61,370 nucleotides of DNA. Origin: an uncultured Mycoplasmatota bacterium. GTDB taxonomy: Bacteria > Bacillota_I > Bacilli_A > RF39 > UBA660. The stretch's first letter is position 1. Every line of letters starts with the position of its first letter. Below the pieces are notes generated by a model. The model did not search any database, was not told the DNA's origin, and saw only the letters and a list, made by a program, of their open reading frames with translations. Both the position numbers and the translations under genes were made by a program. Of this stretch, positions 7,986-42,309 are shown piece after piece. Where the stretch lies: assembly GCA_947365915.1 (NCBI GenBank), contig CANAXT010000003.1, positions 1 to 61,370 of the forward strand, written 5' to 3'.

Positions 7986-8168
7986 AAAAAAAAAGCCCAA
8001 AAGATCGGCGCTCGTAACGATAAAAACCTGATCTCCCAGGTGGGTATCACAGAATCGATATCAGGAGTCCTGTACTGTGTACAAGCATTCAACAACAACC
8101 GATTCATTAGATTCCCAATCGTTATAATTAGTAGGTTTTTCAATAAAAGCAAACCATATCTTTTAGGC
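7986..8168 (-). ncRNA. Candidate ~180-nt stable sRNA (6S-like architecture); identity unconfirmed
   Basis: Has its own promoter (see next feature). The 5' end GCCUAAAAGAU (8168-8158) pairs with the 3' end AUCUUUUGGGC (8005-7995), followed by U9. Internal helices include CACAG/CUGUG, CAGG-ACU-CCUG and AAAAACCU/AGGUUUUU. No RBS-preceded ORF. Confidence 0.4.
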
Positions 8169-8174
8169 AATTTC

Positions 8175-12493: not shown

Positions 12494-12703
12494 AAAAACG
12501 TCCCTAAGTTTAAAACTTAAGGACGAAAGTATCGCGGTGCCACCTTATTTTATTGTATAAAACAATACGCTTGGTTCTTTTAACGCAAGAAGTACGGTTA
12601 TTTTACGTTTAGTGTCTTTCTAAAGTATCCTTCCGAATGTTTTCACCTTAATCATTCTCTCTTTGGGAAGTGATTTCTTTTTACTCTTCTAAACAAATAA
12701 TAT
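12494..12703 (-). promoter_or_regulatory. T-box leader of the hisS-aspS operon
   Basis: On the minus strand: AGAGA bulge, T-box sequence AAGGUGGCACCGCG (12533-12546), then a 13-bp terminator CGUCCUUAAGUUU/AAACUUAGGGACG plus U6 (12494-12526). The specifier region contains GACAC (12612-12616). Confidence 0.85.
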
Positions 12704-19158: not shown

Positions 19159-19464
19159 TTATTTGATTTCACTAATGCTTTTTAGGTCTTTTATTTTTAG
19201 ATATTGTTTGATTGTTTGTTTTCTATTATGGTATTCAAATATAAACCATTTGTCGTCATAGTCGGTTATTTCTCCTATGATTTCACTAAATAAGTAGGAG
19301 TCTTCTACGTTTTCGTTGTTTAATGTGATATAGACTTTTTTGTTTTGATAATGACTGAGGTCTATTTTTTTGTTGTTTTCTTTTGTTTCTATTTTTAGTT
19401 TGTCATTGATGTCTAAAAGGGTTAATAATATGGCAATGTTTAATATGATGATTACTATGTTCAA
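19159..19464 (-). CDS. Small membrane-anchored protein; its C-terminal domain is shared with the upstream HTH protein
   Basis: 101 aa with an N-terminal TM helix. 4-nt overlap with 19461-19889. The C-terminal ~55 aa align by eye with the C-terminus of the 142-aa HTH protein. Confidence 0.55.
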   Translation of the reverse strand: MNIVIIILNIAILLTLLDINDKLKIETKENNKKIDLSHYQNKKVYITLNNENVEDSYLFSEIIGEITDYDDKWFIFEYHNRKQTIKQYLKIKDLKSISEIK

Positions 19465-19889
19465 TTTTGTTCCTCCTCTATTATTTTAATGGCGGATATT
19501 AGGTCTATATCGATTAGTTTTTCTACTGTTTGTTTTTTTTCTTTGTATGATATTTTCATCCAATCCTGATTTGTTTCGATGATGGTACATAGGGTGTCAT
19601 ATAGTTCATTGTAATCGTCTGTTTCAACAGCGATATAGCATTTTTTTCCAATTAAGTTTGTTAATATGTTTTTTTTGTTACAGTTTATTTTTAGTTGGTT
19701 GTTGGTTAGGTCGTCTAGGCTTATGTTAAAATAGGATGCGATTTGTTTGGCTTGGTTGATATCAGGATTGGTAATATCATTTTCCCAGTTGAATAATGTT
19801 TGTCTGGTTATTTGTAGGTTTTTAGATAGTTTTTCTGCAGTTAAGTTTTGTTTTTTTCTAAGTTGTGTTATTTTTTCTCCTAGTGTCAT
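19461..19889 (-). CDS. XRE-family HTH transcriptional regulator
   Basis: 142 aa with 'ITRQTLFNWENDITNPDINQ'. Confidence 0.8.
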   Translation of the reverse strand: MTLGEKITQLRKKQNLTAEKLSKNLQITRQTLFNWENDITNPDINQAKQIASYFNISLDDLTNNQLKINCNKKNILTNLIGKKCYIAVETDDYNELYDTLCTIIETNQDWMKISYKEKKQTVEKLIDIDLISAIKIIEEEQN

Positions 19890-19996
19890 TTTTTCACCTC
19901 GTTTTTATTATATTACAATTTTGGTATTTGTTATAGAAAATGTCTTTTACATTTTGTATAAATTGTTTTACAAGCGTGAAAAAAAAGTGTATTTTT

Positions 19997-20719
19997 TTAC
20001 ACTTCGTTATAGATATTTTCAAATAATTCTACTGTCCTTGTTACAATTTCGATGGTTCTATTTTTGTATTTGTTATAAATGTTGGTATGATTTTTATTTT
20101 GATTTTCATTTAATAGTGTTCCATCTTTTTGACAATATATGGTTGTATTGTTTTCGTTTAGGTATGTGATTTTCATGTTTTTTCCGTCATAGTCTGCGGC
20201 TATGGCTTCTTCGTCTGTCCATTCTGTACTAATGGCTGATATTTGTGGTTCTAATGCTTGTGGCATTTTGGTATACACTTTATAGTTGATTCCATTTTCA
20301 GTAATTGAATAAAAACCGATTTCATCTTTTTTAAATCCTAGTTGTTTGATATTAGACATAATTGTTTCATTTTTTTGGTTGTTCTTTTTTTGCTGTTCTG
20401 TTTTGATTTGTTTGTTTACTATAAAGGCAAGTACTATCATCAATAGTATGAGTGTAAGTGTGATGGTTATGGTTTTAAATATTTTACTTGATTTTAAGTC
20501 TTTGTCTATTTTTTTGATCATGTTTTTATCACCTTTTAATAAGAGGTCTAAGGAAATGTGAAATTCATTACTGATTTTGATTAGTGTTTCGATGTCTGGA
20601 TAGTTTTTTTCATTTTCCCAGTTCGATACGGTCTGTCTGGTTACGTTTAGAATTTCTGCGAACTGGTCTTGAGACATCTTATTATCCTTTCTGATTTTTA
20701 GTATTTTTTTACCCAGCAT
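19997..20719 (-). CDS. XRE-family HTH protein with a TM helix and an extracytoplasmic domain
   Basis: 240 aa with 'VTRQTVSNWENEKNYPD', then TM 'ITITLTLILLMIVLAFIV'. Confidence 0.8.
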   Translation of the reverse strand: MLGKKILKIRKDNKMSQDQFAEILNVTRQTVSNWENEKNYPDIETLIKISNEFHISLDLLLKGDKNMIKKIDKDLKSSKIFKTITITLTLILLMIVLAFIVNKQIKTEQQKKNNQKNETIMSNIKQLGFKKDEIGFYSITENGINYKVYTKMPQALEPQISAISTEWTDEEAIAADYDGKNMKITYLNENNTTIYCQKDGTLLNENQNKNHTNIYNKYKNRTIEIVTRTVELFENIYNEV

Positions 20720-20815
20720 CGTTTTTTTTCCTCCTTTCTTTCAATTATGATACTATTTTGGAATCTGTTTTTCTATCAAATTTGTTTTCCATTGTTCGCA
20801 AGTGTTTCTTGCGTT

Positions 20816-21373
20816 TTATGATTCACAATTTCCTTTTTTTGATTTGAAGTATTTTTCTAAGTTTTCTATACTGCTGTCAATATTATTAAAATCAACTAAT
20901 TTTTTAATTTCATTTGTCATTGAATCTGAACAATTTTCACATTTAAAGTATTGATCAGTTCCAAATTCAATTATGTATTGGTTATCTTTTATATTACAAA
21001 TTGTTGTTGCACTACTTTCTACATTGGGCATTTTTCCTGTTGCAAGAAATAAAATTAAGACAATCAGATCAATGATGAAAAGTGTGATAAACGCTACTCC
21101 AATGAATTTGAGAATTTTAATCGTGAAGTGTGCGAGTTTTTCGGTATTACTCACCTTTTCTACTAATGTGTTTTTTATATTATTGTTTAGTAGTTCATCG
21201 ATACTAATATTTAATGCATTCGATAAAAGTTTTAATTGATCTGGGTTGGGTGTGGTTTGTCCTAATTCCCAATTGGAAATGGTTTGTCTTGTGACTTCTA
21301 TTTTTTCTCCTAATTGTTCTTGTGAAAGTCCTTTTTTCTTCCTTAATTCTAAAATTTTATTTCCTAATGACAT
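20816..21373 (-). CDS. XRE-family HTH protein with a TM helix and a Cys-containing extracytoplasmic domain
   Basis: ATG at 21373 follows AAAGGAG. Contains 'VTRQTISNWELGQTTPN', then TM 'FIGVAFITLFIIDLIVLILFL'. Confidence 0.8.
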   Translation of the reverse strand: MSLGNKILELRKKKGLSQEQLGEKIEVTRQTISNWELGQTTPNPDQLKLLSNALNISIDELLNNNIKNTLVEKVSNTEKLAHFTIKILKFIGVAFITLFIIDLIVLILFLATGKMPNVESSATTICNIKDNQYIIEFGTDQYFKCENCSDSMTNEIKKLVDFNNIDSSIENLEKYFKSKKGNCES

Positions 21374-21551
21374 AATATTTGCTCCTTTCACTTTTCATTA
21401 TAAATGAAAGTTATTTGGCAAGTCTACCAAAAAGCTTTGGAACTTTGTCAAAGTTTTTTCACATTAAAAAAATACTTCTCTCTTAATAAGTATTTAATAG
21501 ATCGTTCTTTTTCCTAATATTTGTATTATCATTTTTTGATTATTTTTAAAG

Positions 21552-21593: not shown

Positions 21594-21670
21594 TGGTAGC
21601 GACGAGTGGATTCGAACCACCGACCTACTGGGTATGAACCAGTTGCTCTAGCCAACTGAGCTACATCGCC
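21594..21670 (-). tRNA. tRNA-Met (anticodon CAU), elongator-type
   Basis: 77 nt: GGCGAUGUAGCUCAGUUGGCUAGAGCAACUGGUUCAUACCCAGUAGGUCGGUGGUUCGAAUCCACUCGUCGCUACCA. Folds as a cloverleaf with encoded CCA. The anticodon stem lacks the initiator 3xG-C feature; tRNA-Ile2 (lysidine) is not excluded. Confidence 0.85.
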
Positions 21671-23932: not shown

Positions 23933-24775
23933 TTATTTACTAGTGACTTTATTATTATAACATTCAATTACATTTTTTAATAAAATCATCACTGTCATAG
24001 GACCAATTCCTCCTGGTACTTTGGTAATATAAGAGGCTTTTTCTTTGACTTCATCAAATTTTACGTCTCCATATACTTTTCCGTTTTCCCAAGTTGTTCC
24101 AGCATCGATAATAACTGCTCCTTCTTTTACCATATCTGCAGTGATCATTTCTTTTTGTCCTGTTGCTGTAATTAGGATATCTGCTGATGTGGTAATTTGT
24201 TTTAGGTTTTCTGTTTTTGAGTGACAAATGGTCACTGTTGCGTCTTTTTTCATTAACAATTGGACTAATGGTTTCCCAATTAAGTTACTTCTTCCAATAA
24301 GCGCTACATGTTTCCCACTTATTTCAATTTCGCTTAGTCGAAGGATTTCCATAACTGCTAGTGCGGTACATGGTATAAAGCATTTTCGATTGGTGTAAAA
24401 ACGGGCAATACTTTTATCTGTTAATCCATCAATGTCTTTTGAGACATCAATTGCGTTTACGATTCGTTTGGTACTCATTCCATTTGGGAGTGGTAATTGA
24501 ATGATGATTCCATCTACATATTCATCGTTATTTAATTCTACTATTTTATTGATAATTTCTCGTTCACTTGTATCAAAGGCATACTGAAATAGACGAAAAT
24601 TCATTCCGATTTCGGTTGATATTTGTGATATGGCATCTACGTATGGTGTTGTTGATGCTTCTTCTCCAATTTGAACGACTGCAATACTTGGTTTAATCAT
24701 ACAAGTTTTTACTTTTGATGTCAGTTCTTCTTGTAATTGTTTGCTGATATCCTTTCCATCTAAAATCTGACTCAT
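23933..24775 (-). CDS. folD: Bifunctional methylenetetrahydrofolate dehydrogenase/cyclohydrolase
   Basis: 280 aa with 'PCTALAVMEIL', 'GRSNLIGKPL' and 'VPGGIGPMTV'. Confidence 0.92.
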   Translation of the reverse strand: MSQILDGKDISKQLQEELTSKVKTCMIKPSIAVVQIGEEASTTPYVDAISQISTEIGMNFRLFQYAFDTSEREIINKIVELNNDEYVDGIIIQLPLPNGMSTKRIVNAIDVSKDIDGLTDKSIARFYTNRKCFIPCTALAVMEILRLSEIEISGKHVALIGRSNLIGKPLVQLLMKKDATVTICHSKTENLKQITTSADILITATGQKEMITADMVKEGAVIIDAGTTWENGKVYGDVKFDEVKEKASYITKVPGGIGPMTVMILLKNVIECYNNKVTSK

Positions 24776-26075: not shown

Positions 26076-26294
26076 TTTTTACCTTCTTTCTAATACCAAT
26101 GATTTTGATCATTCTTCTATATTATAATCGTTTTGGTTTTCAAAAGTCAAGAAAAAAGTATCACTTTTTATGAGAAGAAATTTGTTTTATCGTTATAAAA
26201 TAATTGTATTATTTTGTCATTTTTATTTTCTTTTTTTTGTTTTTTTATGTTACAATATATTTCAGTAATTATTATAAATTATTGGAGGTATTTT

Positions 26295-27380
26295 ATGAAA
26301 ACTAGGTTGTTAAATTGTGATATATTAAGAATTATTGCATTTTCTTTTGTAGTTGGGGTTCATAGTCTTTCTTATGCAGAATTTTACGTTACACCTATGA
26401 CTGGAACTACCATGTTGTTTTTAAATTTTTTACGTTGCTTATTTATCACTTGCGTTCCTTTATTTTTGGTTTTATCTGGATATTTAATGATAGAAAAAAC
26501 ATTAAGTAAGAATTATTTAAAAAAATTATCCAGAATTATTGTAACTTATATTTTATGTAGTATTGCTTGCATGGTTGGATTACATTTTACTGAAAATGGT
26601 GTTTTTTCCATTAAACATCTCATTTCTGGAATATTATCTTTTACTGCTGCACCATATGCTTGGTATGTCAATATGTATTTAGGTTTATATTTACTGATTC
26701 CTTTTTTAAATATTCTTTGGAATAATCTCAAAAATAAACAAGAGAAATTATATTTAATTATTGTATTATCTATATTAACTGTATTACCTACATTATTCAA
26801 TATTTTTCGATTTGATAGTTTAAATTGGTGGATTCATCCTGCTAATTCTAGGGATTATCAACAATTGATTCCTAATTTTTGGCAGGAGATTCTTTACCCT
26901 ATTCTTTATTATTTTATCGGGTGCTATTTAAAACAATTTCCACTTAAAATGTCTACTAAGAAAAATACTTTGTATTTAATGATATCTATCTTATTATTTG
27001 GTTTATTCAATTATTATCGTGATTATGGTTTTACATTTTATGGTTCTATTTTTTCAAATTATTTTTCATTTGAATGTCTGATTGTAACTGTTCTTTTTGC
27101 CAATTTAGTTTTATGTAATCTTCACTTTAAAATAAGTAATGAAAAAGTTATTAAATTCATATCTAAAGTTTCTTATTTAACATTTGGTGCATATTTACTT
27201 TCCAAAATTTTTGATTCTTGGTTTTATCCCTTTTTATTAGATCATACTTCTACTATGAAAGAGCGTCTTCCATTTTTCATTCCTATTATTATACTCATTA
27301 TGATATGTTCTTTATTATTATCGTTTATTATTGACCTCGTACAACAGTTAATTTTTAAAGTTTGCAAGCAAAAAAAATAA
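26295..27380 (+). CDS. Acyltransferase family 3 membrane protein
   Basis: ATG at 26295 follows GGAGG. Polytopic, with an N-terminal 'CDILRIIAFSFVVGVHS' pattern. Confidence 0.7.
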   Translation: MKTRLLNCDILRIIAFSFVVGVHSLSYAEFYVTPMTGTTMLFLNFLRCLFITCVPLFLVLSGYLMIEKTLSKNYLKKLSRIIVTYILCSIACMVGLHFTENGVFSIKHLISGILSFTAAPYAWYVNMYLGLYLLIPFLNILWNNLKNKQEKLYLIIVLSILTVLPTLFNIFRFDSLNWWIHPANSRDYQQLIPNFWQEILYPILYYFIGCYLKQFPLKMSTKKNTLYLMISILLFGLFNYYRDYGFTFYGSIFSNYFSFECLIVTVLFANLVLCNLHFKISNEKVIKFISKVSYLTFGAYLLSKIFDSWFYPFLLDHTSTMKERLPFFIPIIILIMICSLLLSFIIDLVQQLIFKVCKQKK

Positions 27381-27397
27381 TTATGCTCTTTTTATAG

Positions 27398-27443
27398 AAA
27401 ACAGTATCACTTTTTTGTGCTATAAAATAGTGATACTGTTTTT
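27398..27443. terminator. Bidirectional hairpin between convergent genes
   Basis: AAAACAGTATCACT ... AGTGATACTGTTTT: a 12-14-bp stem flanked by A/T runs. Overlaps the last codons of the minus-strand gene. Confidence 0.6.
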
Positions 27444-27991
27444 GAAAATTCATATAAAATAATATTACTTTTATTGACTGCTATGCTTTTTCCCATAGCT
27501 TTTCCACCTATTGTTAGGGCTGCTATAATCGCTGTTACAAGTAAACTTATAATTAGTGGATCTATGTTCATAGAACTTGAAATCGTAATGGATAAAATTG
27601 CTCCTGTTGATCCTGATATAATTCCACAGATGTCTCCAATGACATCGTTACAAAATGAGGAAACTTTGTCTGCATTTTTTTTGAATTTCACAGCAATACT
27701 AGCTCCTCTTACTTTTCTAGACGCCATAGAGTGAAATGGGGTTTCATCAGCTGCGGTTACAGCAACTCCAATCATATCAAATAGAATTCCTAGTGCAATA
27801 AAAGCAATTAAAATAATGATTCCAATTATAATATTTACTTTAGGCATTACAGTTTCTGATAATAGCGAAAAAGCAATAGACAAAGTGAATGCGATTATAG
27901 ATATTTTTAAAACCCATTTATAGTCAATTAATTTTTTTTCTTTTTTTAGTTTTTTATTTTTTTTTAGTTCATCAATATATCTTCCCATCAT
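27407..27991 (-). CDS. Four-TM membrane protein with a DxxxD motif; OapA-like (OLE-associated protein A) candidate
   Basis: ~194 aa starting 'MMGRYID' (GAGGTG SD). Four hydrophobic helices. 'FCNDVIGDICG' lies in helix 3. Positioned directly downstream of and co-oriented with the large ncRNA candidate. Confidence 0.5.
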   Translation of the reverse strand: MMGRYIDELKKNKKLKKEKKLIDYKWVLKISIIAFTLSIAFSLLSETVMPKVNIIIGIIILIAFIALGILFDMIGVAVTAADETPFHSMASRKVRGASIAVKFKKNADKVSSFCNDVIGDICGIISGSTGAILSITISSSMNIDPLIISLLVTAIIAALTIGGKAMGKSIAVNKSNIILYEFSKTVSLFYSTKK

Positions 27992-28019
27992 ACACCTCAA
28001 AATACAAAAAAAATGGCTA

Positions 28020-28605
28020 TTCATATAGTAAACTTTACGTCTTAGGTCAAGTAGGATTTCCCTTACTTCAAACTTTTCCGTTACCAGAAAAGGGGTTCCC
28101 CATTACAGAAGTAAATATACCGTCACCGAATATATGACTTGATTACCACTGAGTACGCACTGCAATCCCATATGAATAGACACTCTAGGAGATTTCCTCA
28201 ACAATTCGATTTATTATTAGTTCCCTTTTGCAAGTATTGTTTCATATTGCAATCATTTAGTTTGGTCGGCCAATCAAATTAAAATCGTTCAATAATTCCC
28301 AAATACTCACTCAGGACAAGCTACACTACTCGTAACTTATCATCACATAGTAGGTTTAATCCTAAGTCGTCACTTCTCCATCAACTTTCGTGTATAGGGA
28401 AATAACAAGGTTAGGTCTCCAAGATGGAAGGGTCGTTTCTGTATGCCATTACAGTCGCCCGGCCATCTATACCTCCCAGCATCCACCCCAAACTGGGCGT
28501 AAGAAGCAGACACCAGAAGTTTCACAGATATGCTCTTTAGTGACTTTTTAGTTCCACCTTCATAATAATCGAAATTGACTAGAATAATGTGCCATTTCAA
28601 TTCAT
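28020..28605 (-). ncRNA. Large (~585 nt) structured ncRNA candidate; OLE-like by size and context
   Basis: No credible ORF. Strong promoter at 28613-28642. G+C is ~50% (28381-28500) and ~37% (28021-28140) by hand count, in an AT-rich context. Several complementary segments, including a 10-bp helix 28017-28026/28170-28179. Confidence 0.55.
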
Positions 28606-28612
28606 GTTATCC

Positions 28613-28642
28613 ATTTTAACAGATTTTTTTTTAATTGTCAAA
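28613..28642 (-). promoter_or_regulatory. Near-consensus sigma-A promoter driving the large ncRNA
   Basis: Minus strand reads TTGACA, 17 nt, TGtTAAAAT. The -35 box lies in the palindrome TGTCAAaTTGACA (28637-28649). Confidence 0.6.
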
Positions 28643-28690
28643 TTGACATTATATTATATGTCTGATTGTGAATTCTATGATCTTTTATAT

Positions 28691-31027
28691 CTATTTTCCT
28701 TGATAATGTTTTAACCAATAATATTCTATGTTGTTAAATTCTTCTAATTTTTTCTTTCCATTTTCAGATAAACTTGTTGTAAAATCATTTTCATAGTACC
28801 AAGGAGTATGGATCACTTTTAGTTGTTTTTTTAAATCAGTTAGATATTGTAAGTAAGCGTTTCCTTTCCATGATAAGTTTTCGAATAATTCTGGCATTAA
28901 AAACATTGGGCTGATGGTAGGTGCATCCCCTACAAAATCATTTTTCGTTACTTTTTTTGCTACTTCATTTGCCCAAATGAAGTATGGAACTCCATAATAA
29001 TTTAAAAATCCTTCTTCTGTATTGGTATCCATATCAATACCCATTTGTCTGTATCCAATTTCTCCATCTCCTAAAAATGGATTATGATCTGCAAATACTA
29101 ATATTACAACAGGTTCCTTTTGTTTTTTAAAGTAATCTACTAATTTCTTTAATGATTTATTGGTATCTTTTATTCCGTGCAAATAATTATTAATCGTATT
29201 ATAAATTACCTCATCCATTTCTTCTGGCTGTTCTAAATATTTTTCTTCATATAACTTTTCTGCACTATATGGTCCATGGTTTTGATAAGTTACGGAAAAA
29301 TGAAAGTATGGTTTGTCCTTTTTGACTGATTTTTCATATCCTTTAATTATATAATCAAAAAATTTGTCATCTGTTAAAAATGTTTCTTGAACTTTTGAAA
29401 AACGATTTTCATAATAATCAAAATTTTGAAATCCTAATATTTCATCTACATTTCTTCTGTTATAGAACCATCCATAAATAGGATGCATTGCTTCTGTATA
29501 ATATCCTTGCTCATTAAAATATTGTACAAATGAGTTTGCGTTTTTACGAAAAGATGGTAATTGATAATATCCTGTTAAATAACTTCTTTCCGTATTAATT
29601 GTTCCTCCACCAAATACATTAGACACAATTTTTCCAGAATACGATTCCTTTTCTATTTGATGAAAATCTTCATAAATATCTTCTGTTAATTTCACAGAGT
29701 CAAATTTAGATATATCTTGATATGCCTCTAACATAATTGAAATTACATTTACTTTTTTATCTGAAGATATGTTTTCTAATTTGTAATTTGAAAGTATTAT
29801 TTCTGCTTTTTTATTATTATAATTTTCTGGCTTTTTTATTTTAACTACTTTAGTACTATGAAGAAATGGATAAATAAATCCACGTATTTTATACTGTTGA
29901 GTTTCAGACCAAATATTAATATTAGATTGATCCCCTACTTTGTTATATAATTTATCACTTTGATAAATTGGTTTTAATCCAATCAATGCAATTGAAAAAA
30001 TAATCATTGCGTACAATATTCTTTTTTTCACTTTCATTTTACTTTTAGTTCGATATAAAAATAATATAAACATAATCAATAATGAGGTAATGATCAATAC
30101 TACCATAAATAAGGTTATTTTTAATTCATATCTTTTTGACATTTCAAATGCTTCTGTAAAAAGCGTTAAATCTGTTGCTACAAATGGGTCATCACGGTAG
30201 ATCAATTTTGTACGATTTACAAATCCCATAATAAAAACTAAAAAATTTGTAATTCCAAAGCTAAGCCATAATCTTTTTGTCAATATATAAAATAATATTA
30301 AAGTAATTAAAATTGGTATTCCATTTAATAAAACTACCGAAGTTTGCTTCCAATAAATTTTAAATGTTGGCATATCCATTCCCTGACTTGAAAAATAAAA
30401 ATTAATTGTTAAAATCCAAGCGGATAATAAAAGCATAATCCCTATCATTTGTAATACTATTTTAGGAAAATTATTCAAATTCTTTTTTGTATATGGAATG
30501 ATTTTTCTAAAGTTTCTATAAATATAAGACTTTTCGGCTTTGTCAAATAATTCTTCATCAGATTTTCGGTATCCATAAAACGTATTAATTTTTATTTTAC
30601 TTAATTTTCCTATTCGTTCCTCTTGAACGAATATTTTCCCTAATAATTGTCCAGTTTCGAAACAATAATCAGTTGCCTTTGTTTTATATTCTGGTAATGC
30701 TTTTTTTATCAATTCTAATGGTAAAGCACTGATTAAAATGCATTCTTTAGGAAAAAAATCTCTTAGAATTCGATCATCTAATCGATTTTTGTGGGTATCC
30801 CAAAATTGTGTAATAGTAGTATCACTATTTTCTTTTAAAAATGAAAAATAAAATACATAATATTGTTCTTTCGTAATTTTATTTAGTTTAAATAAAAAAT
30901 AATAAAATATATGTAAAAAGATATATTTTATTATTTTTCTATTTTGGGTACAGCAAAATAGAAAAAAGTCACGTGCTAAATTTCCTTTGTAAATAATTTT
31001 TTCAAATTCTATTATTTTGTAATTCAT
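28691..31027 (-). CDS. LtaS-type sulfatase-fold (phosphoglycerol/phospho-sugar) transferase with a degenerate HAD-like N-terminal domain
   Basis: 778 aa. Central polytopic segment, then an extracellular sulfatase-like domain ('ISIMLEAYQD', 'GGGTINTERSYLTG', 'FADHNP'). The N-terminal ~190 aa are paralogous to the HAD domain of 44558-45538. Confidence 0.75.
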   Translation of the reverse strand: MNYKIIEFEKIIYKGNLARDFFLFCCTQNRKIIKYIFLHIFYYFLFKLNKITKEQYYVFYFSFLKENSDTTITQFWDTHKNRLDDRILRDFFPKECILISALPLELIKKALPEYKTKATDYCFETGQLLGKIFVQEERIGKLSKIKINTFYGYRKSDEELFDKAEKSYIYRNFRKIIPYTKKNLNNFPKIVLQMIGIMLLLSAWILTINFYFSSQGMDMPTFKIYWKQTSVVLLNGIPILITLILFYILTKRLWLSFGITNFLVFIMGFVNRTKLIYRDDPFVATDLTLFTEAFEMSKRYELKITLFMVVLIITSLLIMFILFLYRTKSKMKVKKRILYAMIIFSIALIGLKPIYQSDKLYNKVGDQSNINIWSETQQYKIRGFIYPFLHSTKVVKIKKPENYNNKKAEIILSNYKLENISSDKKVNVISIMLEAYQDISKFDSVKLTEDIYEDFHQIEKESYSGKIVSNVFGGGTINTERSYLTGYYQLPSFRKNANSFVQYFNEQGYYTEAMHPIYGWFYNRRNVDEILGFQNFDYYENRFSKVQETFLTDDKFFDYIIKGYEKSVKKDKPYFHFSVTYQNHGPYSAEKLYEEKYLEQPEEMDEVIYNTINNYLHGIKDTNKSLKKLVDYFKKQKEPVVILVFADHNPFLGDGEIGYRQMGIDMDTNTEEGFLNYYGVPYFIWANEVAKKVTKNDFVGDAPTISPMFLMPELFENLSWKGNAYLQYLTDLKKQLKVIHTPWYYENDFTTSLSENGKKKLEEFNNIEYYWLKHYQGK

Positions 31028-31127
31028 AATAAATCTCCTTAATTAAAAGTATAAAGAAAAAAAAGAAAAAAATCAATAATATCACATATTTTTCACTTTT
31101 TTGATTATAAGATTCTTAAATATATTT

Positions 31128-32813
31128 TTATGGTATCATCCACATAAAATGAGAAGGATAATATTCTCTTCCGAATTCTACAATATTCCATAATTCTTTA
31201 CCATTACAATAAATCATAATTAAGAAAATCAAAAGCCAAACAATATTTTTATATTTTGGAATCTTTTCAAAAACCTGCTTTAATAGTAATGAAATTAAAA
31301 TAAAGTAAGCCCAAGAAAAATAAATTCCATAAATTATTAATCCATTTTCTGCGGTTCCCCAGCCGATAATACATAAAATTACAAACGAGAATAATAACCA
31401 TCCAAAACTAATTTGCGCAATTTTATTTTTTCGATTTAGTATAAATGATAGAACCATTAGGATTATTAAAACTAATCCAAATATATTAATTCCTGTAGAC
31501 GCTTGTAATTGATATGAAACATGGTCAAGTGTTACATGATCTATGGTTGCCTTTGGTGCTATAAAGCAACTAGAGATAAAATTAATATATTGATATAATC
31601 TATCTATAAAATCTACATCCGTTCCCATATGTTGCTGATACACCTCAAATCCGGTTATACAGTTGACTATTCTTCCTGCTTGTCCACATAGAATAATTAA
31701 AAAGCAAAAAATCAGTCCATATTTTATTCCTTCTTTTATAAATTTTTTCCAATCTTTGCAAAATACAAGAAAAGGCAATAAAACTGCATTTGTAATTAGT
31801 GATCCTGTTGCTGCGCTAAATAAAAATGGGTTTGACTTCTTTTTTTCAACAAAATAATATATTAAAATAATTAGCCAAAATAGTCCAAAAATATATTGTT
31901 CTACATTAAGTGTAAAAAATATAGTTGCAAACATCAATGCATAAAATATAGCAAAAAATATATTTTCTTTTTTATTAATTAATCGCGCTAATAAAATTGA
32001 ACAAATAATTAATACTAATCCTTGAAGACAAACAATAAAAAATGAATATATCGTAGTTCTCGGGAAAAAGCTAAAAATTTCAGCTCCAATATCTGCAATC
32101 ATTCCAAATGGAAAAGCAAAAGCTGCAAATAGTGGTTGTCTAAGATCATTTTCAGGAGCATTAAAATTTAAAAAACTATTTCGGTTAATTTGAATTCCAT
32201 TGTCTGTAGTATATAATATATCATATAATTCTATATTTTCTGTTTTAACATTAAAAGGAGCAGTAAAAGCAGTTGTATTTAAATTGACCCAAGTAATTAA
32301 AATCAAAGAAACAACGCATGCTACTACAAAGTACTTTTTTTCAAATTTTGAAAGGCTTTTAAAAAACGAAATAATTTTTGGTAAACAATAATGTATAATT
32401 ACAAACCATACAAGGCATAGAAATGGGATTGATAATATTTGTAATCCCAATTGTCCGAATAACCATAAACTATTACTATCCATATTACATAGTGAAGAAA
32501 ATTTTAATATCGTACTCTTCATGAATGACTCAGCAACAGTAAAATAATGAAGTAATATTCGACTAGTTTGTACCCCCAAAAAAATACAAATCCAATAATC
32601 TAATTGATACTTTATCACTGGTTTCCATTCCACAATTTTTATTATTATATGCTTATAAAATAATGCATATCCTGCTGCAATTCCAACTATCAATGCACTC
32701 ATTATACTAATTAACTTGGGACTATCAATAGTTACTATTTGATTACAACATATTATTGAAAATAATAGTATCACGTTCAAAACTTTTTCTCTTTTCACAC
32801 AAAATCGTTTCAT
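31128..32813 (-). CDS. Polytopic membrane protein, GT-C-like glycosyltransferase candidate
   Basis: 561 aa with more than 12 hydrophobic helices. Sits between the LtaS-like and UbiA-like genes. No family recognised. Confidence 0.35.
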   Translation of the reverse strand: MKRFCVKREKVLNVILLFSIICCNQIVTIDSPKLISIMSALIVGIAAGYALFYKHIIIKIVEWKPVIKYQLDYWICIFLGVQTSRILLHYFTVAESFMKSTILKFSSLCNMDSNSLWLFGQLGLQILSIPFLCLVWFVIIHYCLPKIISFFKSLSKFEKKYFVVACVVSLILITWVNLNTTAFTAPFNVKTENIELYDILYTTDNGIQINRNSFLNFNAPENDLRQPLFAAFAFPFGMIADIGAEIFSFFPRTTIYSFFIVCLQGLVLIICSILLARLINKKENIFFAIFYALMFATIFFTLNVEQYIFGLFWLIILIYYFVEKKKSNPFLFSAATGSLITNAVLLPFLVFCKDWKKFIKEGIKYGLIFCFLIILCGQAGRIVNCITGFEVYQQHMGTDVDFIDRLYQYINFISSCFIAPKATIDHVTLDHVSYQLQASTGINIFGLVLIILMVLSFILNRKNKIAQISFGWLLFSFVILCIIGWGTAENGLIIYGIYFSWAYFILISLLLKQVFEKIPKYKNIVWLLIFLIMIYCNGKELWNIVEFGREYYPSHFMWMIP

Positions 32814-32826
32814 TCTTACACTTCCT

Positions 32827-33705
32827 TCACCATAAATAAATAATTCCCATTACGACTAGTCCATAAATTAAAATAATGCTTAATAATAATTTATCTTCTA
32901 ATACAACATCTACAGGATCTCCCAAACTATCATTTTCTACATCCATGCTATATTTCATTAGAATTAGAATCACGATTGGGACAGTCCAAATCAGTAAGTT
33001 TCCTGTTTTTAAAACATTATTTGGATCTACTGTCCATAATGCGTAAAATACGATTGTTAAAGATAAACACATATACATATTTTTATCTAGAAAATTTTCA
33101 TTGTAGTATTTTAATACTTCTCTAGATTTAGTACCAGATTTCTTTATTTCATTTCTTCTTTTGCCTAGTCCTAAATAAAAAGCAGCTGATATGATTGTTA
33201 AATATAACCAGTTAGAGACTGAAATTTCTGTGATACTAGCTCCATACAATACTCTAATTAAAAATCCAGAAACTAAAATTGTAATATCTAAAAGAGGTAC
33301 ATTTTTCAAACCAAAACTATAAAAAAGATTAATAATTATATATACTAGTATATATAAGTAACTCGCATGAGTTACTTCTGAAGTTGCACCAATTTGAAAC
33401 AATAATGAAATGAAGAACAAGCATATTGCTAGTATAATTGCATTTTTCACACTTACTTTTTCTGAAGCGATTGGTCTATCTTTTTTCTTTTCATGTAATT
33501 TATCTCTTTCTTTATCTCTAATATCATTTACAATATAAACAATGGAAGTTGAAAGCGAAAATGCAAAAAAAGCCATTATTGTTGAAATCAATAAATTTAG
33601 ATTCAATAAATTACTACTAAATATGATCGGAAAAAATATCAACAAATTTTTTATATAATGTTTTGGTCTCATTAGTTTTAAATATTGTTTCATAAACACT
33701 CTCAC
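32827..33705 (-). CDS. UbiA-family polyprenyl-phosphate phosphoribosyltransferase (DPPR synthase-like)
   Basis: 292 aa. 'MRPKHYIKNLLIF' and 'NDIRDKERDKLHEKKKDRPIASEKV' match the NDxxDxxxD..H..K..RPIA signature of the mycobacterial UbiA (Rv3806c) family. Confidence 0.8.
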   Translation of the reverse strand: MRVFMKQYLKLMRPKHYIKNLLIFFPIIFSSNLLNLNLLISTIMAFFAFSLSTSIVYIVNDIRDKERDKLHEKKKDRPIASEKVSVKNAIILAICLFFISLLFQIGATSEVTHASYLYILVYIIINLFYSFGLKNVPLLDITILVSGFLIRVLYGASITEISVSNWLYLTIISAAFYLGLGKRRNEIKKSGTKSREVLKYYNENFLDKNMYMCLSLTIVFYALWTVDPNNVLKTGNLLIWTVPIVILILMKYSMDVENDSLGDPVDVVLEDKLLLSIILIYGLVVMGIIYLW

Positions 33706-33711
33706 TTTCTA

Positions 33712-34056
33712 TCATTTTTTAGCAATTAGTATAATACCAATAATAATTAAAATAATTCCCATCACATTGGTTATCGAGCAAGATTCCTTAAATACAAATA
33801 TTCCAATTAATAATACAATAATTTGTACTATTCCTGTTAAAATTGGAAAAATATAAGATAAATCAAAAGATACTAACAATTTTTGCCATATTAGAAAACT
33901 TGCAATATAAAAAATAAATCCTAAACATGTTATAAATCCAATTTTAAATTGTATAGAATCTTTTAGAGAAAACGATAAGCTATCTCCACCCATTTTCATA
34001 AATAATAATCCAAGAGAGGTACAAATTAAGTATATAATACTAAGTAATAATTTCAT
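33712..34056 (-). CDS. Small 4-TM SMR/EamA-like protein (ArnE/F-type lipid-linked sugar flippase candidate)
   Basis: 114 aa with four hydrophobic helices. Overlaps the upstream GT-C gene. Confidence 0.55.
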   Translation of the reverse strand: MKLLLSIIYLICTSLGLLFMKMGGDSLSFSLKDSIQFKIGFITCLGFIFYIASFLIWQKLLVSFDLSYIFPILTGIVQIIVLLIGIFVFKESCSITNVMGIILIIIGIILIAKK

Positions 34057-35353
34057 TTTTTGTTTTCCTTTCCTTGTATTTATTCCACATAATTGAAATA
34101 CCGATTCCTATTATAATAAATTGCATAAAATATAAAGTTTGTGCATATCTATCAAATGAGAACGTATAAGAATATAGTGCTATTTGAAATATATAAGTAG
34201 TTACCAGCAATGCCATTTCTTTCCAATATCTTTTAAAAACAACAATCATAATTAATGAACAAAAAGTTAAAATGAGTGTTATATTACGTATTAAAAGATT
34301 CCATTCTTTTGGCACTTTTAATACTTCTTTCCAATAAAATGTACTAGTAAGCATAATTTTAGGTTTATACAACATATAAGATTTTAACATGGCTTTGGGA
34401 TTTTTTTTCCACCATTCCTTCATTCTATATTTTGCTTTGATTCCATCATATTCTAATGTATAATATTGATTTAAGGCTGACAATTTATTTGATTCTTTGC
34501 CAAATAGGTATTTTTTCATTTCCATCGATAGCTTATCATCTACATTTTTTTTATAATCTAATTCTTCATCTAAAGGATAATCATATCCTTGGTAAGTTCC
34601 CAATAGTAATGGATTTCCTGTTCCATATGTTAATGGAATAAATTTGTTAAATACTTTATAATTGCGAATTGTCCAAGGAATTAAAAATAAAGATAACACT
34701 CCAGCTGCAATGATTCCTTGTTTTATGAGTAATTTAAAATCATATTTCTTTAGTAATAAATAGAAAAATAAGAATAATGGATAAATTCCAATATTTGGTC
34801 GAATCATGATTCCGAATATATACCAAAATACAATCCACCAAAAATCTTTCCATTCTTTTGTTTTACTGAGTTTCAATGTATGATAAATTAAAAATATAAA
34901 TGACAACATAAATGGCGTTTCTGTTAAAACCATACTATTCATCCATAAAAAGTCTGTTGTTAATAACAAACAAGTAATTATTCCAGATATTATGTCATTT
35001 GCAAAAAAACGCATAATTTTATATAAACCATAAATTGATAGTTCTGCCATAATAATCCAAAATAATTTTAAAGAAAGCCATAATAATCCTCCTTTTCCAA
35101 AAATTAAAGCAAAAAAGGAAATTAAAATTGGCATACCTGGCATAATTTGGGCTGTTTTCTCATAATTATGAATCGTGATTTTTCCACTTTCCAAAAATTG
35201 TATTCCACTATTGACATAACTTAAATCATCACTTCCTAATGTATAAGAGTAACCAAGTTGATAAAGTACTAATAAATTTAAAATACATGAAACAATAAGT
35301 AATAAATATAAAATTTTATTTTCTTTTATATGTTTTTTAATCTTATTTTTCAT
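34040..35353 (-). CDS. GT-C fold glycosyltransferase (ArnT/PMT family 39-like)
   Basis: 437 aa, polytopic. 'GSDDLSY' lies in the first loop. Context is a GT2 and a small flippase. Confidence 0.6.
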   Translation of the reverse strand: MKNKIKKHIKENKILYLLLIVSCILNLLVLYQLGYSYTLGSDDLSYVNSGIQFLESGKITIHNYEKTAQIMPGMPILISFFALIFGKGGLLWLSLKLFWIIMAELSIYGLYKIMRFFANDIISGIITCLLLTTDFLWMNSMVLTETPFMLSFIFLIYHTLKLSKTKEWKDFWWIVFWYIFGIMIRPNIGIYPLFLFFYLLLKKYDFKLLIKQGIIAAGVLSLFLIPWTIRNYKVFNKFIPLTYGTGNPLLLGTYQGYDYPLDEELDYKKNVDDKLSMEMKKYLFGKESNKLSALNQYYTLEYDGIKAKYRMKEWWKKNPKAMLKSYMLYKPKIMLTSTFYWKEVLKVPKEWNLLIRNITLILTFCSLIMIVVFKRYWKEMALLVTTYIFQIALYSYTFSFDRYAQTLYFMQFIIIGIGISIMWNKYKERKTKNEIIT

Positions 35354-35708
35354 CCATTTTATTCCTTTCCAGTTCCTGTTTTAAAATTCCAAATTCCTGT
35401 GTTAATACCATCAATTTGTGCTTCAATTCTGATACAATAATTGTCAAACTAAATGAAATCACTAAAAGAACAATAATACCCCCTAAAAAAAGCAAGTTGC
35501 TAAGGGTTTCTATTCCAAAACTTTTCGCAATTTGTTCTAATGGTTCTGGTATAATCGCACAAATAAACATAGCAAAAGCAGAGATGAACCATACTACAGA
35601 ATATCTAACTGAAATTTTTCGTTTATGGACATATCGGTATATGAAAAAAGTAAAACATAAAATTAAAAATATAAGTTCAATTTGTAAACGTAATGGTACA
35701 TTATTCAT
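35343..35708 (-). CDS. DUF2304-like small membrane protein
   Basis: Starts 'MNNVPLRLQIELIF' and overlaps the GT2 stop by 8 nt. Typical partner of GtrB-like GT2 genes. Confidence 0.55.
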   Translation of the reverse strand: MNNVPLRLQIELIFLILCFTFFIYRYVHKRKISVRYSVVWFISAFAMFICAIIPEPLEQIAKSFGIETLSNLLFLGGIIVLLVISFSLTIIVSELKHKLMVLTQEFGILKQELERNKMDEK

Positions 35709-36423
35709 TCTTTTTCCCTCCGCTTCCAACTGCCGTAATAATAATAGCAAGTCCTACTTTTATCATATAAAATAATGACTTTAATGCTCTAATTGATGAG
35801 GTGCCACCTTCTCTTTCTAACATTCTCACTGGAACTTCTTTGATTTTACAACCAGATTTGATTAAGGTTACTAGTGTTTCTGGTTCAGGATAATCACTAG
35901 GATAATAAGAAACAAACATATTAATTATTTTATTATTAGCAGCACGAAAACCTGATGTAACATCCTTTATTTTAACTCCTGTACAAATCCGAATCAAACT
36001 CGATAGTAGTTTGATTCCAAGTCTTCTGGTAGAAGAAGACTTGAAATCGCTTTCTTTACCAACAAATCTAGAGCCAACAACAAAATCATATTTTTCTTCT
36101 ATAATTGGTCTAATTAAAGTTTCAATATAATGCTCATCATGCTGTCCATCTCCATCAAATTGAATTGCAATATCATAATGGTTATATTTTGCAAAACGAT
36201 AACCAGTCTGCACTGCACCTCCAATTCCCAAATTATTAACTAAATTAATATGCTTAATATTTTCTGTTTCTAAAATTTCTCTTGTCCTATCTGTTGAGCC
36301 ATCATTAATTACGATATAATCAAGCTCTATTTTTGGAATTTTTACTGCTTTTACTTTTTTTACTGTGTTTAAAATGTTTATTTCTTCATTATAAGCAGGA
36401 ATAATCATTAATACCTTTTTCAT
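35701..36423 (-). CDS. GT2 polyprenyl-phosphate glycosyltransferase (GtrB/ArnC/DPM1-like)
   Basis: 240 aa with 'IIPAYNEE', 'INDGSTD' and 'QFDGDGQH'. Confidence 0.85.
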   Translation of the reverse strand: MKKVLMIIPAYNEEINILNTVKKVKAVKIPKIELDYIVINDGSTDRTREILETENIKHINLVNNLGIGGAVQTGYRFAKYNHYDIAIQFDGDGQHDEHYIETLIRPIIEEKYDFVVGSRFVGKESDFKSSSTRRLGIKLLSSLIRICTGVKIKDVTSGFRAANNKIINMFVSYYPSDYPEPETLVTLIKSGCKIKEVPVRMLEREGGTSSIRALKSLFYMIKVGLAIIITAVGSGGKKNE

Positions 36424-36446
36424 AGTTCACTCCTAACTACAATCAT

Positions 36447-37550
36447 TTATTTTGAAAATCTGGCTATGATTGCATTTACAATACGTTTGCTTGCTTCTCC
36501 ATCTCCATACGGATTACTTGATTTACTCATCGCCTCATATGTTTGATGATCGGTTAATAATGTTTTGGTTTCACTATATATTTTTTCTTCATCTGTTCCC
36601 ACTAGTTTTAAAGTTCCCGCTTTAATTCCTTCTGGTCTTTCTGTTGTATCTCTTAAAACCAATACTGGTTTTCCAAGTGATGGAGCTTCTTCTTGAATTC
36701 CTCCACTATCTGTTAAAATGATATGAGAACTAGCTATAAAATTGTGAAAATCAAATACTTCTAATGGTTCAATCAATTTTACTCTATCTGAGTCTTTTAA
36801 AACTTCATTTGCAATTTCTCTTACTTTTGGATTCATATGAATTGGATATACAACTTTTATATCTTTAAATTCATCCACAATTCGTTTTACTGCTCTAAAG
36901 ATATGATACATCGGTTCTCCTAAATTTTCTCTTCTATGAGCAGTTAATAAAATCATTTTGTTATTTCCTACCCAATCTAGTACTTCATGATGATAATCCT
37001 CTTTTACTGTCGTTTTCATTGCATCAATTGCAGTATTTCCAGTTACAAAAATAGTGTTTTCTTTTTTTCCTTCATCTATTAAATTTTTGGCACTTAATGC
37101 GGTTGGAGAAAAATGCATATCTGCCATACAACCTACCATTTGACGATTCATTTCTTCTGGATATGGGGAATATTTGTCCCATGTTCTAAGTCCAGCTTCT
37201 ACATGCCCTATAGCAGTACTGTTGTAAAAAGCTGCTAATGCTCCTGCAAATGTAGTTGTTGTATCTCCATGAACTAAAACGATATCGGGTTTTTCTTTTT
37301 TTATGACTTCTTCTAATCCATTAAGTGCTCTTGTTGTTACTTCTCCTAATGTTTGTCCTTGTTTCATGATATTCAAATCATAATCTGGTTTGATTTCAAA
37401 TGTTTCCAACACTTGGTCCAGCATCTCTCTATGTTGTGCTGTTACACAAACAATACAGCTGATTTCTTCCCTACTTTTTAATTCTTTTACTAGTGGTGCC
37501 ATTTTTATGGCTTCTGGTCTTGTCCCGAATACAGTCATTACTTTAATCAT
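36447..37550 (-). CDS. mnaA: UDP-N-acetylglucosamine 2-epimerase (non-hydrolysing)
   Basis: 367 aa with 'VFGTRPEAIKMAPL', 'VHGDTTT' and 'DSGGIQEEAPSLGKPVLVLR'. Confidence 0.92.
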   Translation of the reverse strand: MIKVMTVFGTRPEAIKMAPLVKELKSREEISCIVCVTAQHREMLDQVLETFEIKPDYDLNIMKQGQTLGEVTTRALNGLEEVIKKEKPDIVLVHGDTTTTFAGALAAFYNSTAIGHVEAGLRTWDKYSPYPEEMNRQMVGCMADMHFSPTALSAKNLIDEGKKENTIFVTGNTAIDAMKTTVKEDYHHEVLDWVGNNKMILLTAHRRENLGEPMYHIFRAVKRIVDEFKDIKVVYPIHMNPKVREIANEVLKDSDRVKLIEPLEVFDFHNFIASSHIILTDSGGIQEEAPSLGKPVLVLRDTTERPEGIKAGTLKLVGTDEEKIYSETKTLLTDHQTYEAMSKSSNPYGDGEASKRIVNAIIARFSK

Positions 37551-37565
37551 ACTTTTTCCTCTTTT

Positions 37566-38696
37566 CTAAACATTTCTTAAAAATGAAATCCATTTTTCTT
37601 TTACTATGTCAAATGAGTATTGTTGAACACTTTTTTTCGCAGTTTCTCCTAGTAAGTTTCTTTTTTCTCTGTTTTCAATCAACTCTCCTATTTGTTCAGC
37701 CATTTGTTTTATGTTTCTATTTTCTATTAGATAACCATTTTTATCTGGTTCAATAATTTCATGTGCGCCTTGTGCACTAGAGAATGCTATTAGTGGAATT
37801 CCAAATGAAGCTGCTTCTAATAAGACAATTCCAAATGATTCTTCATAGGAACACATAACATAAATAGAGTTGTGTAACATTTCTTTATAAATGTATTCCT
37901 TATTTTGAAATCCATGGAGTATTACAGACTTGTCTAATTCTAATTCTTTTATTTTCTGTTTTATCAAATTCATTTGAACGCCATCACCAATAATGTTCAG
38001 TTTCCAATCTGGATATTTTTGATGTACTAATTCAAAAACCTCAATTAGGTCTAAAAATCCTTTTTCAGGAGATAGTCTTCCGATCGATATTAAATTTTTT
38101 TCACTTAAATTTGATTTTTCTTTTGGCCAATATTCTAATGCATTTGGAATAAAGATACATTTTGTTTTACCATGAGTTTTAGTTTTATAAAACTCAGTTA
38201 ATTCATTTGATACAGGCATCAGGTAATCTATGTTGGTACAAGATTTTTTTATTTTCTCTATATATTTTTGATTGTTATTATGATGGCAGTGTTCTTGAGC
38301 AATTTTGATTGTATCCTCTTTTCCATATTTATTTAGTAATTTAGTATATAAAATACGGCTTGATATTATAATATCTGCATCACTATTTTTTATATATTTT
38401 TTCATTTCAGAAGTTCTTTTTTTTAAAATGTATAAACTTTTGATACCTTCTTTAAAAGCTTTAAAAAAATTTTTCCTTTTTAAATACTGTTTAAATATTT
38501 CACGATTGGGTTTTAAATTTGTTAAATAAGTTACTTTGACCTTTTTATTCATTTTATATGGTATTTCATCTATCAATTTATAGGTAATTACCAGCTCAAC
38601 TTCATAATCATCACATAACATGTTCGACATGTTGGCAATCGCTTGTTCTACGCCTCCATAACCAAGATGGAGTCCTAAAATCGAAATTTTTTTCAT
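37566..38696 (-). CDS. GT4-family glycosyltransferase
   Basis: 376 aa with 'GRLSPEKG' and 'ESFGIVLLEA'. Confidence 0.85.
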   Translation of the reverse strand: MKKISILGLHLGYGGVEQAIANMSNMLCDDYEVELVITYKLIDEIPYKMNKKVKVTYLTNLKPNREIFKQYLKRKNFFKAFKEGIKSLYILKKRTSEMKKYIKNSDADIIISSRILYTKLLNKYGKEDTIKIAQEHCHHNNNQKYIEKIKKSCTNIDYLMPVSNELTEFYKTKTHGKTKCIFIPNALEYWPKEKSNLSEKNLISIGRLSPEKGFLDLIEVFELVHQKYPDWKLNIIGDGVQMNLIKQKIKELELDKSVILHGFQNKEYIYKEMLHNSIYVMCSYEESFGIVLLEAASFGIPLIAFSSAQGAHEIIEPDKNGYLIENRNIKQMAEQIGELIENREKRNLLGETAKKSVQQYSFDIVKEKWISFLRNV

Positions 38697-38699
38697 CTA

Positions 38700-39401
38700 C
38701 TACTCTCCTAGTTTTTGGATTTTCTTTCGATACCAACTTGCCTTGTTTTTGCTTGTAATTCTTAATTTTAAGAATTCATTGATTTTTCTTTTATATGGCT
38801 TTTTTTCATCTAACCAGGAACCATTAAATACATGTATGGAAACAGAATCTTTTGAAGGATTACAGAGCACTGTATCAGGATAAACAACAATTCCTTCTTT
38901 TAATTCTTGATATTGGTTGTTTTTTTTACATTTGTATTTATCTACTAGAATATCAGAGACCGAAATGGTGTTATTATTCTGAAAATCAAATTCATAGTTT
39001 TCTAAATTGTCGTAATAATCTAACATGTCTTTTACAAAAGGATGTCCTTTTTCTGCTCCAAATACTGCTGTAAAAGGAAATTCAGGTCGTTCAAAGCCTA
39101 CAAAAGCACGATGAGATAGGAATTGATCAAAATTATCTAAAATTAATACATCTGTATCTAAATAGATTCCTCCTTCGTGGTAAATTACATAAGCTCTTAT
39201 GTAATCACTTACATATGCCCATTTTTTTGCTTTATATGCTGCTTCTATAAATGGATGAGAATGAATATCAAAATTTGACTCATTCCATTCTATAATCTCA
39301 TAATCTGTTAAGTGTTTTTTCCATGTTTTCATACATTTTTGAATATTTTTAGGTTTTTCTTTTCCTCCAACCCATATAAAATGAATTTTTTTTGGTATCA
39401 T
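38700..39401 (-). CDS. DXD-motif glycosyltransferase (Gly_transf_sug/GT32-like)
   Basis: 233 aa with 'IPKKIHFIWVGG', 'SDYIRAYVIYHEGGIYLDTDV'. Confidence 0.75.
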   Translation of the reverse strand: MIPKKIHFIWVGGKEKPKNIQKCMKTWKKHLTDYEIIEWNESNFDIHSHPFIEAAYKAKKWAYVSDYIRAYVIYHEGGIYLDTDVLILDNFDQFLSHRAFVGFERPEFPFTAVFGAEKGHPFVKDMLDYYDNLENYEFDFQNNNTISVSDILVDKYKCKKNNQYQELKEGIVVYPDTVLCNPSKDSVSIHVFNGSWLDEKKPYKRKINEFLKLRITSKNKASWYRKKIQKLGE

Positions 39402-39410
39402 ATAATCCTC

Positions 39411-42221: not shown

Positions 42222-42309
42222 ACTACACTCCTTGCTATTTATTGTTTTTATTATATCATGTATATTTTTACATGTAAACTAAGCAGAATTTTCTTTTAAA
42301 AAGTTTACA

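Follow-up and report, generated by a model that had tools for sequence, protein, structure and literature searches.

What lies in the roughly 700 nt that separate the stop codon of an LtaS-like gene (28691) from the start of a gene for a small membrane protein (27991), both on the minus strand, in a stretch with no credible open reading frame? The window analyzed here, a 61,370-nt stretch of DNA from an uncultured Mycoplasmatota bacterium, had been described in an earlier note as carrying in this gap an untranslated, G+C-enriched RNA with its own promoter, interpreted either as an OLE/OapA-like locus or as a distinct new class of large RNA. As characterized, OLE (ornate, large, extremophilic) RNA is abundant and stable, dimerizes, and enters a membrane-localized RNA–protein complex, and its partner OapA binds it at a 2:1 ratio and localizes it to the membrane. 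To our knowledge, OLE ranks with the largest and most highly conserved non-coding RNAs of bacteria that still lack a known biochemical function. The first of the two interpretations holds and the second is refuted: the gap contains a full-length OLE RNA, the downstream gene encodes an OapA homolog with the DxxxD motif, and the order of RNA and then oapA is kept in relatives. We regard it as almost certain that this is an ole-oapA locus, an OLE RNA gene followed by oapA, with transcription predicted to run from an extended −10 promoter and probably to a hairpin at the oapA stop codon, and found nothing that contradicts the identification. Because a full-length OLE RNA is followed by oapA, the locus is a further example of the known OLE/OapA system and not a novel RNA class; it holds no new kind of element, and standard Rfam annotation would label it.

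An Rfam 15 scan of the whole window, run at the curated thresholds, places a 615-nt OLE RNA (RF01071) at 27997-28611 on the minus strand. The match covers model positions 1-616 of 616 with 407.9 bits (E = 2e-116), eight times the gathering threshold of 50 bits. When we repeated the scan permissively, using 27300-28800, all 4227 Rfam families, and E-values up to 1, OLE was the sole family recovered, and M-box, ROOL, GOLLD, and raiA gave no match, the last three being, like OLE, large structured non-coding RNAs of Bacillota. The RNA also stands out in base composition, at 37.9% G+C in a window of 29.6%, with a rise from about 25% in the flanks to 35–46% inside the stretch; earlier hand counts of about 50% for 28381-28500 and about 37% for 28021-28140 prove exact (50.0% and 36.7%). 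All Rfam helices between model positions 198 and 383 are present, as is the P13 loop, and the RNA is therefore of the full-length type, an assignment that uses Rfam model positions and not the published stem names P7/P8. Two reduced forms of OLE, variants 1 and 2, have been described from TANB77 and RF39, gut clades with reduced genomes (Fernando and Breaker 2024, PMC11332333). Their hosts, like the present one, are uncultured gut Bacillota with small genomes of low G+C that only metagenome assemblies have revealed, but the variants are shortened relative to the full-length RNA found here.

The gene that follows is oapA (OLE-associated protein A; 27407-27991, minus strand). Its first ATG lies 5 nt beyond the end of the Rfam match on the same strand, and the ribosome-binding site read from the sequence, GAGGTG at 27998-27993, overlaps the last bases of that match. 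The ORF of about 194 aa proposed previously is present from 27991, but the second ATG at 27988, 4 nt downstream of GAGGTG, is the likelier start and gives 193 aa, as in most relatives. For comparison we fetched the locus of Halalkalibacterium (Bacillus) halodurans, whose OapA has been studied experimentally, using the sequence of a 20-nt OLE capture oligonucleotide from the supplement of PMC9723947; it contains OLE at 538.6 bits with a 204-aa OapA ORF directly downstream (L081 3056-3670). In BLASTP, the window protein and H. halodurans OapA (BH2780) share 42% identity and 66% positives over 171 of 194 residues (E = 4e-48), as expected if the downstream protein is OapA, and the block FCNDVIGDI is identical in the two. 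DVIGD, the DxxxD motif, occupies residues 116-120, and D116 and D120 are invariant in 31 homologs. OapA is defined by these two aspartates, which carry the mutations of the PM1 allele (PMC7936274, PMC11332333).

The predicted fold of the protein agrees with this assignment. In an AlphaFold2 model (mean pLDDT 79.8), residues 24-51, 54-80, 107-141, and 145-173 form long helices, and Kyte–Doolittle peaks centered near residues 37, 62, 126, and 153 match them, bearing out the four hydrophobic helices previously counted by eye. With 193–194 aa, the protein fits the description of OapA as a ~21-kDa protein with four transmembrane helices. The best Foldseek matches of the model in the PDB are the CorB structures 7M1T/7M1U (probability 1.00, TM-score 0.47 normalized to the query) and the CorC structures 7CFG and 7CFF; 7M1U is also the top match for H. 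halodurans OapA (Fernando and Breaker, PMC11332333). At the sequence level the resemblance is faint, in line with the distant CNNM-like domain of OapA, which scores lower than true CNNM proteins do: the Pfam CNNM match is below threshold (17.2 bits against a cutoff of 28.4; E = 0.004), a phmmer search of the PDB aligns OapA residues 54-160 to CorB residues 7-108 at only E = 4, and no NCBIfam model matches the window protein. Neither the sequence search nor the fold search of the PDB found a solved OapA structure. The protein thus shares a transmembrane fold with the Mg2+ transporters CNNM, CorB, CorC, and MpfA and differs from them in lacking CBS and CorC domains and in carrying the OapA-specific DxxxD; OapA has four membrane helices, whereas CorB has three per monomer (PMC11332333). 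Four helices and the CNNM-like fold are common to the window protein and H. halodurans OapA, but their lysine-rich tails lie at opposite ends. Here the tail is N-terminal, with nine lysines or arginines in residues 1-24, and in H. halodurans it is C-terminal (NGKKKKEKNSRK). Since four membrane helices should put both ends on the same side, the position of the tail may make no difference to its role.

A search of species-representative genomes, with the OapA homolog as query, yielded 80 related loci. All come from uncultured, low-G+C metagenome-assembled genomes, most of them titled Bacilli, Tenericutes, Mollicutes, or Bacillales and with isolate names that are largely gut or fecal. The closest reach 92% OapA identity, and the set fits the Bacillota hosts of OLE. 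In 76 of the 80 loci, a nucleotide HMM places OLE ahead of oapA and in the same orientation, and every one of the 17 loci scanned with Rfam has a full-length OLE (365–438 bits) that ends 1–122 nt before the oapA match.

These loci also bear on the promoter. The minus strand has a sigma-70-type promoter at 28641-28613, with the −35 box TTGACA at 28641-28636, a 17-nt spacer, and the extended −10 element TGtTAAAAT at 28621-28613; its hexamers match the consensus at 11 of 12 positions and the TG of the extended −10 is present. The near-consensus promoter predicted earlier is thus real and conserved, although its first base is 28641 and not 28642. Among the 75 relatives with enough upstream sequence, 72 have an equivalent promoter (at least 10 of 12 positions, 16–18-nt spacing) and 71 the TG, and in all but one of the relatives having the promoter it lies 15–27 nt upstream of the invariant motif TATTCTAGT. 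Recurrence on this scale means that the promoter is not a chance match. The palindrome noted around it can be read from the sequence as a perfect 13-nt one, TGTCAATTTGACA at 28648-28636 (minus strand), whose right half is the −35 box. A similar arrangement, TGT[CA]AA-N0-3-TTGACA, occurs in 19 of the 75 related loci and is therefore recurrent without being universal; the palindrome may act as an operator, or it may be no more than an upstream element rich in A+T.

From this promoter, which is preceded by the stop codon of the LtaS-like ORF, transcription would start near 28606. The untranslated stretch would then extend for about 615 nt to the start codon, so that the RNA predicted earlier exists but is longer than the ~585 nt first estimated. 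OLE would form the first ~610 nt of the transcript, which should continue into the oapA ribosome-binding site and ORF, as a simple terminator scan found no terminator-like site between the OLE RNA and oapA. The transcript probably ends at a hairpin over the oapA stop codon that is followed by U-rich sequence (27442-27398, minus strand). A fold of 27370-27470 on the minus strand has a minimum free energy of −18.4 kcal/mol, a centroid hairpin of −17.8 kcal/mol, and a z-score of −3.1, and none of 200 shuffles is as good. The simple scan missed this putative terminator because its 19-nt loop region exceeds the loop limit of the scan. The conserved promoter, the terminator-free junction, and the stable hairpin together suggest a ~1.2-kb transcript from about 28606 to about 27398, from which the OLE RNA may or may not be cleaved. 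Three sub-threshold Rfam matches (plastid psbA 3′UTR and mir-290), all on the hairpin after oapA, were dismissed as chance. On the other side of the hairpin, an acyltransferase_3 gene (26214-27380, plus strand) lies between oapA and a rubrerythrin gene. It converges on the hairpin, which may accordingly serve as a terminator in both directions, and it looks like a recent insertion, because in the nearest relative (L001) the rubrerythrin gene follows oapA after about 90 nt.

This arrangement raises the question of whether the main role of the RNA is in cis, with the RNA serving as a long 5′ leader or riboswitch that regulates oapA translation and not as a stand-alone RNA. In favor of a leader, an RNA with its own promoter is physically the 5′ UTR of oapA in this clade, the Rfam match extends over the ribosome-binding site of oapA, and no terminator intervenes. 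However, homologous OLE works in an RNA–protein complex, and its gene in H. halodurans belongs to an otherwise unrelated polycistronic operon (PMC12265935). Moreover, four relatives (L031, L037, L077, and L080) have another gene between OLE and oapA, which makes a direct cis effect on oapA translation impossible in those relatives, and the RNA is still conserved there. We therefore give the leader interpretation a very small probability and retain that of an OLE RNA with its partner gene.

Intervening genes of this kind are an observation in their own right. An extra ORF of 100–200 aa lies between OLE and oapA in L031 (3385-3990), L037 (3373-3939), L077 (3347-3922), L080 (3334-3900), and L051 (3510-3821). 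Those of L037, L077, and L080 encode a similar charged protein of about 190 aa, and that of L031 a cysteine-rich protein of 201 aa. These ORFs could encode lineage-specific partners of the complex.

How closely does the RNA itself follow the family? In the window RNA, 140 of the 159 consensus base pairs (88%) form as Watson–Crick or G–U pairs, and 213 of the 249 highly conserved (upper-case) consensus nucleotides (86%) are identical. Three of the four complementary segments picked out earlier by eye correspond to Rfam consensus helices (28018-28028/28168-28178, 28072-28080/28085-28093, and 28423-28432/28458-28467), whereas the fourth, 28456-28460/28495-28499, is not a consensus helix because 28499 pairs inside the hairpin at 28473-28519. 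We examined covariation in 76 RNAs aligned with MAFFT without regard to structure, onto which the Rfam structure was projected from the window's row. Across this alignment 86.5% of cells pair, compared with 39–46% (about 43%) when the partners are slid by 1–3 columns; 109 of 152 pairs have changed on both sides, and none of 500 shuffles matches any observed pairing measure. More than 200 columns are invariant across the relatives; in OLE RNAs, blocks of highly conserved nucleotides make up about 25% of positions. The covariation looked for in homologous regions is thus present. Some aligned relatives have large internal deletions (for example L049, L062, and L078).

These results leave very little room for the two remaining explanations. 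The RNA might belong to a new large structured class that resembles OLE merely in size and gene context. We found no support for this, the sole departure from the model being a missing 4-bp hairpin at model positions 424-435, and the end-to-end covariance-model match, the identity of conserved consensus nucleotides, and the direct alignment of the window RNA with H. halodurans OLE make a new class exceedingly improbable. That the region is a decayed protein gene or a degenerate, non-functional OLE relic is just as improbable: there is a 76-aa ORF on the sense strand and rare defective ole genes are mentioned in the literature (PMC11332333), but the closest relative lacks the ORF, which is not frame-conserved elsewhere either, compensatory changes maintain the base pairs, and both promoter and partner gene are conserved. 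As a gene, this ORF (28370-28600), the only sizable one in the sense direction, was rejected, being absent from L001 and truncated or absent in other relatives. Its lack of conservation and the covariation together argue for a structured RNA and against a decayed gene.

Comparison with the OLE RNAs of H. halodurans and Clostridium acetobutylicum shows the same full-length match, helices, and conserved nucleotide blocks, with oapA immediately downstream, and the window RNA aligns with that of H. halodurans along its whole length. The P13 hairpin (28115-28135, minus strand; AUAUA-U-UCG[GUGA]CGGUAUAU in the cmscan alignment) carries the features of the OapB-bound site of H. halodurans, a GUGA tetraloop and a bulged U (PMC7936274). 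The predicted OapB-binding site, in which the P13 GNRA loop lies next to P12.2, is complete in having the GUGA tetraloop, the bulged U, and the adjacent 6-bp helix. In the relatives, P13 (helix 15) covaries at all eight of its pairs, and 96.9% of its cells pair. The conserved blocks GGAGACC and GCUGGGAG, which flank the J4a/5 and J5/6 kink-turn of OLE (the OapC site), are also present. At 28473-28519 (minus strand; model positions 93-139) is a long 20-bp hairpin with a GCCCA loop, 18 of whose 20 pairs form, and the loop and many of the stem positions are invariant in the 76 sequences. It is probably the P3/P3.1 rod proposed to span the membrane, the name P3 having been mapped from the text of PMC12265935.

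Conversely, several features set the present locus apart from that of H. halodurans. The window RNA is much more A+U-rich (38% G+C), and a hairpin present in H. halodurans (model positions 424-435) is missing from it, as from all 76 aligned relatives. The RNA here has its own conserved promoter, whereas H. halodurans ole lies inside a folD-xseA-xseB-ispA-ole-oapA-dxs cluster and is reported to belong to a single polycistronic transcript (PMC12265935). A folD gene is also present in the window (23933-24775, minus strand), four genes downstream of oapA, and likewise in L001, L003, and L005; in the H. halodurans ole cluster it lies upstream (L081 6893-7741, minus strand). The proximity of folD to ole-oapA may be a remnant of an ancestral neighborhood or a coincidence. 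Genes for OapB and OapC were not found among the small ORFs and Pfam-scanned neighbors of the 61-kb window, a result that is uninformative for the rest of the genome because oapB and oapC are not normally linked to ole.

What the locus would do can be outlined from the H. halodurans and Clostridium acetobutylicum systems. By homology, the OLE RNA would fold into a conserved multi-domain (two-domain) structure and dimerize, and dimers of the four-helix, CNNM-like membrane protein OapA would bind it and anchor it at the cell membrane; recent work proposes that OLE spans the membrane (PMC12265935). The complex promotes growth when cells are stressed by alcohol, cold, Mg2+, or the carbon source (PMC12265935, PMC11332333, PMC12286853), and its counterpart here may help the cell withstand short-chain alcohols, cold, excess Mg2+, and poor carbon sources. 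Because such statements are transferred from distant organisms, we infer from homology only that the function is that of a membrane-anchored RNA–protein complex for stress adaptation.

OLE in reduced-genome gut Bacillota has already been published, and the value of the present locus lies in its being a clean and compact example, with promoter, RNA, oapA, and putative terminator within ~1.25 kb and a conserved core that is set off sharply from a very A+U-rich genome. Among the loci collected from relatives are natural deletions and insertions as well as cases of oapA only. One tentative reading, to which we assign a fairly low probability, is that in this clade ole-oapA is a self-contained two-gene unit with its own strong, conserved promoter, outside any housekeeping operon, and that its departures from H. 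halodurans and its oapA-only sisters are possible natural experiments. The departures of the clade are the loss of the 424-435 hairpin and the N-terminal position of the basic OapA tail; in this genome, the unit in addition sits at the downstream edge of a ~15-kb cluster for cell-envelope glycopolymers that includes the LtaS-like gene. If the reading were true, these departures and the oapA-only sisters could reveal which of its parts the complex can do without and whether it has any tie to cell-wall polymers.

The oapA-only sisters are four species-level genomes (L041/L085, L072/L082, L086, and L138) with intact oapA, DVIGD included. On their contigs, which extend 5.0–10 kb upstream of the gene, neither an nhmmer profile nor Rfam found OLE at E = 0.001. 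The literature describes OLE and OapA as almost completely mutually inclusive. In L041 and L072, apparent inserted defense or mobile-element genes lie upstream of oapA, as judged from translations only, and in L086 and L138 oapA directly adjoins ordinary genes.

The cluster upstream of ole runs from 28691 to 43812 on the minus strand. By Pfam, its members are the LtaS-like sulfatase-domain protein, a DUF6080-like membrane protein, a UbiA prenyltransferase, an SMR-like small membrane protein, a PMT_2 protein, a DUF2304 protein, a GT2 glycosyltransferase, a UDP-GlcNAc 2-epimerase, a GT1 glycosyltransferase, a DXD sugar transferase, an O-antigen-ligase-like/GT2 fusion, and a polysaccharide flippase. 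Published work notes that ole is statistically associated with genes for the cell wall; the LtaS-like neighbor is shared only by the nearest relative, L001.

Further from the locus, the window contains several other features, all on the minus strand. A T-box leader (12516-12700; 103 bits in Rfam against a threshold of 93) is found just ahead of a 429-aa ORF (11188-12477), and there is a 6S RNA gene at 7990-8172 (58.2 bits against a threshold of 46.4). A tRNA gene lies at 21597-21670, and three consecutive genes at 19461-21391 encode Xre-type HTH_3 domain proteins of 142, 240, and 191 aa.
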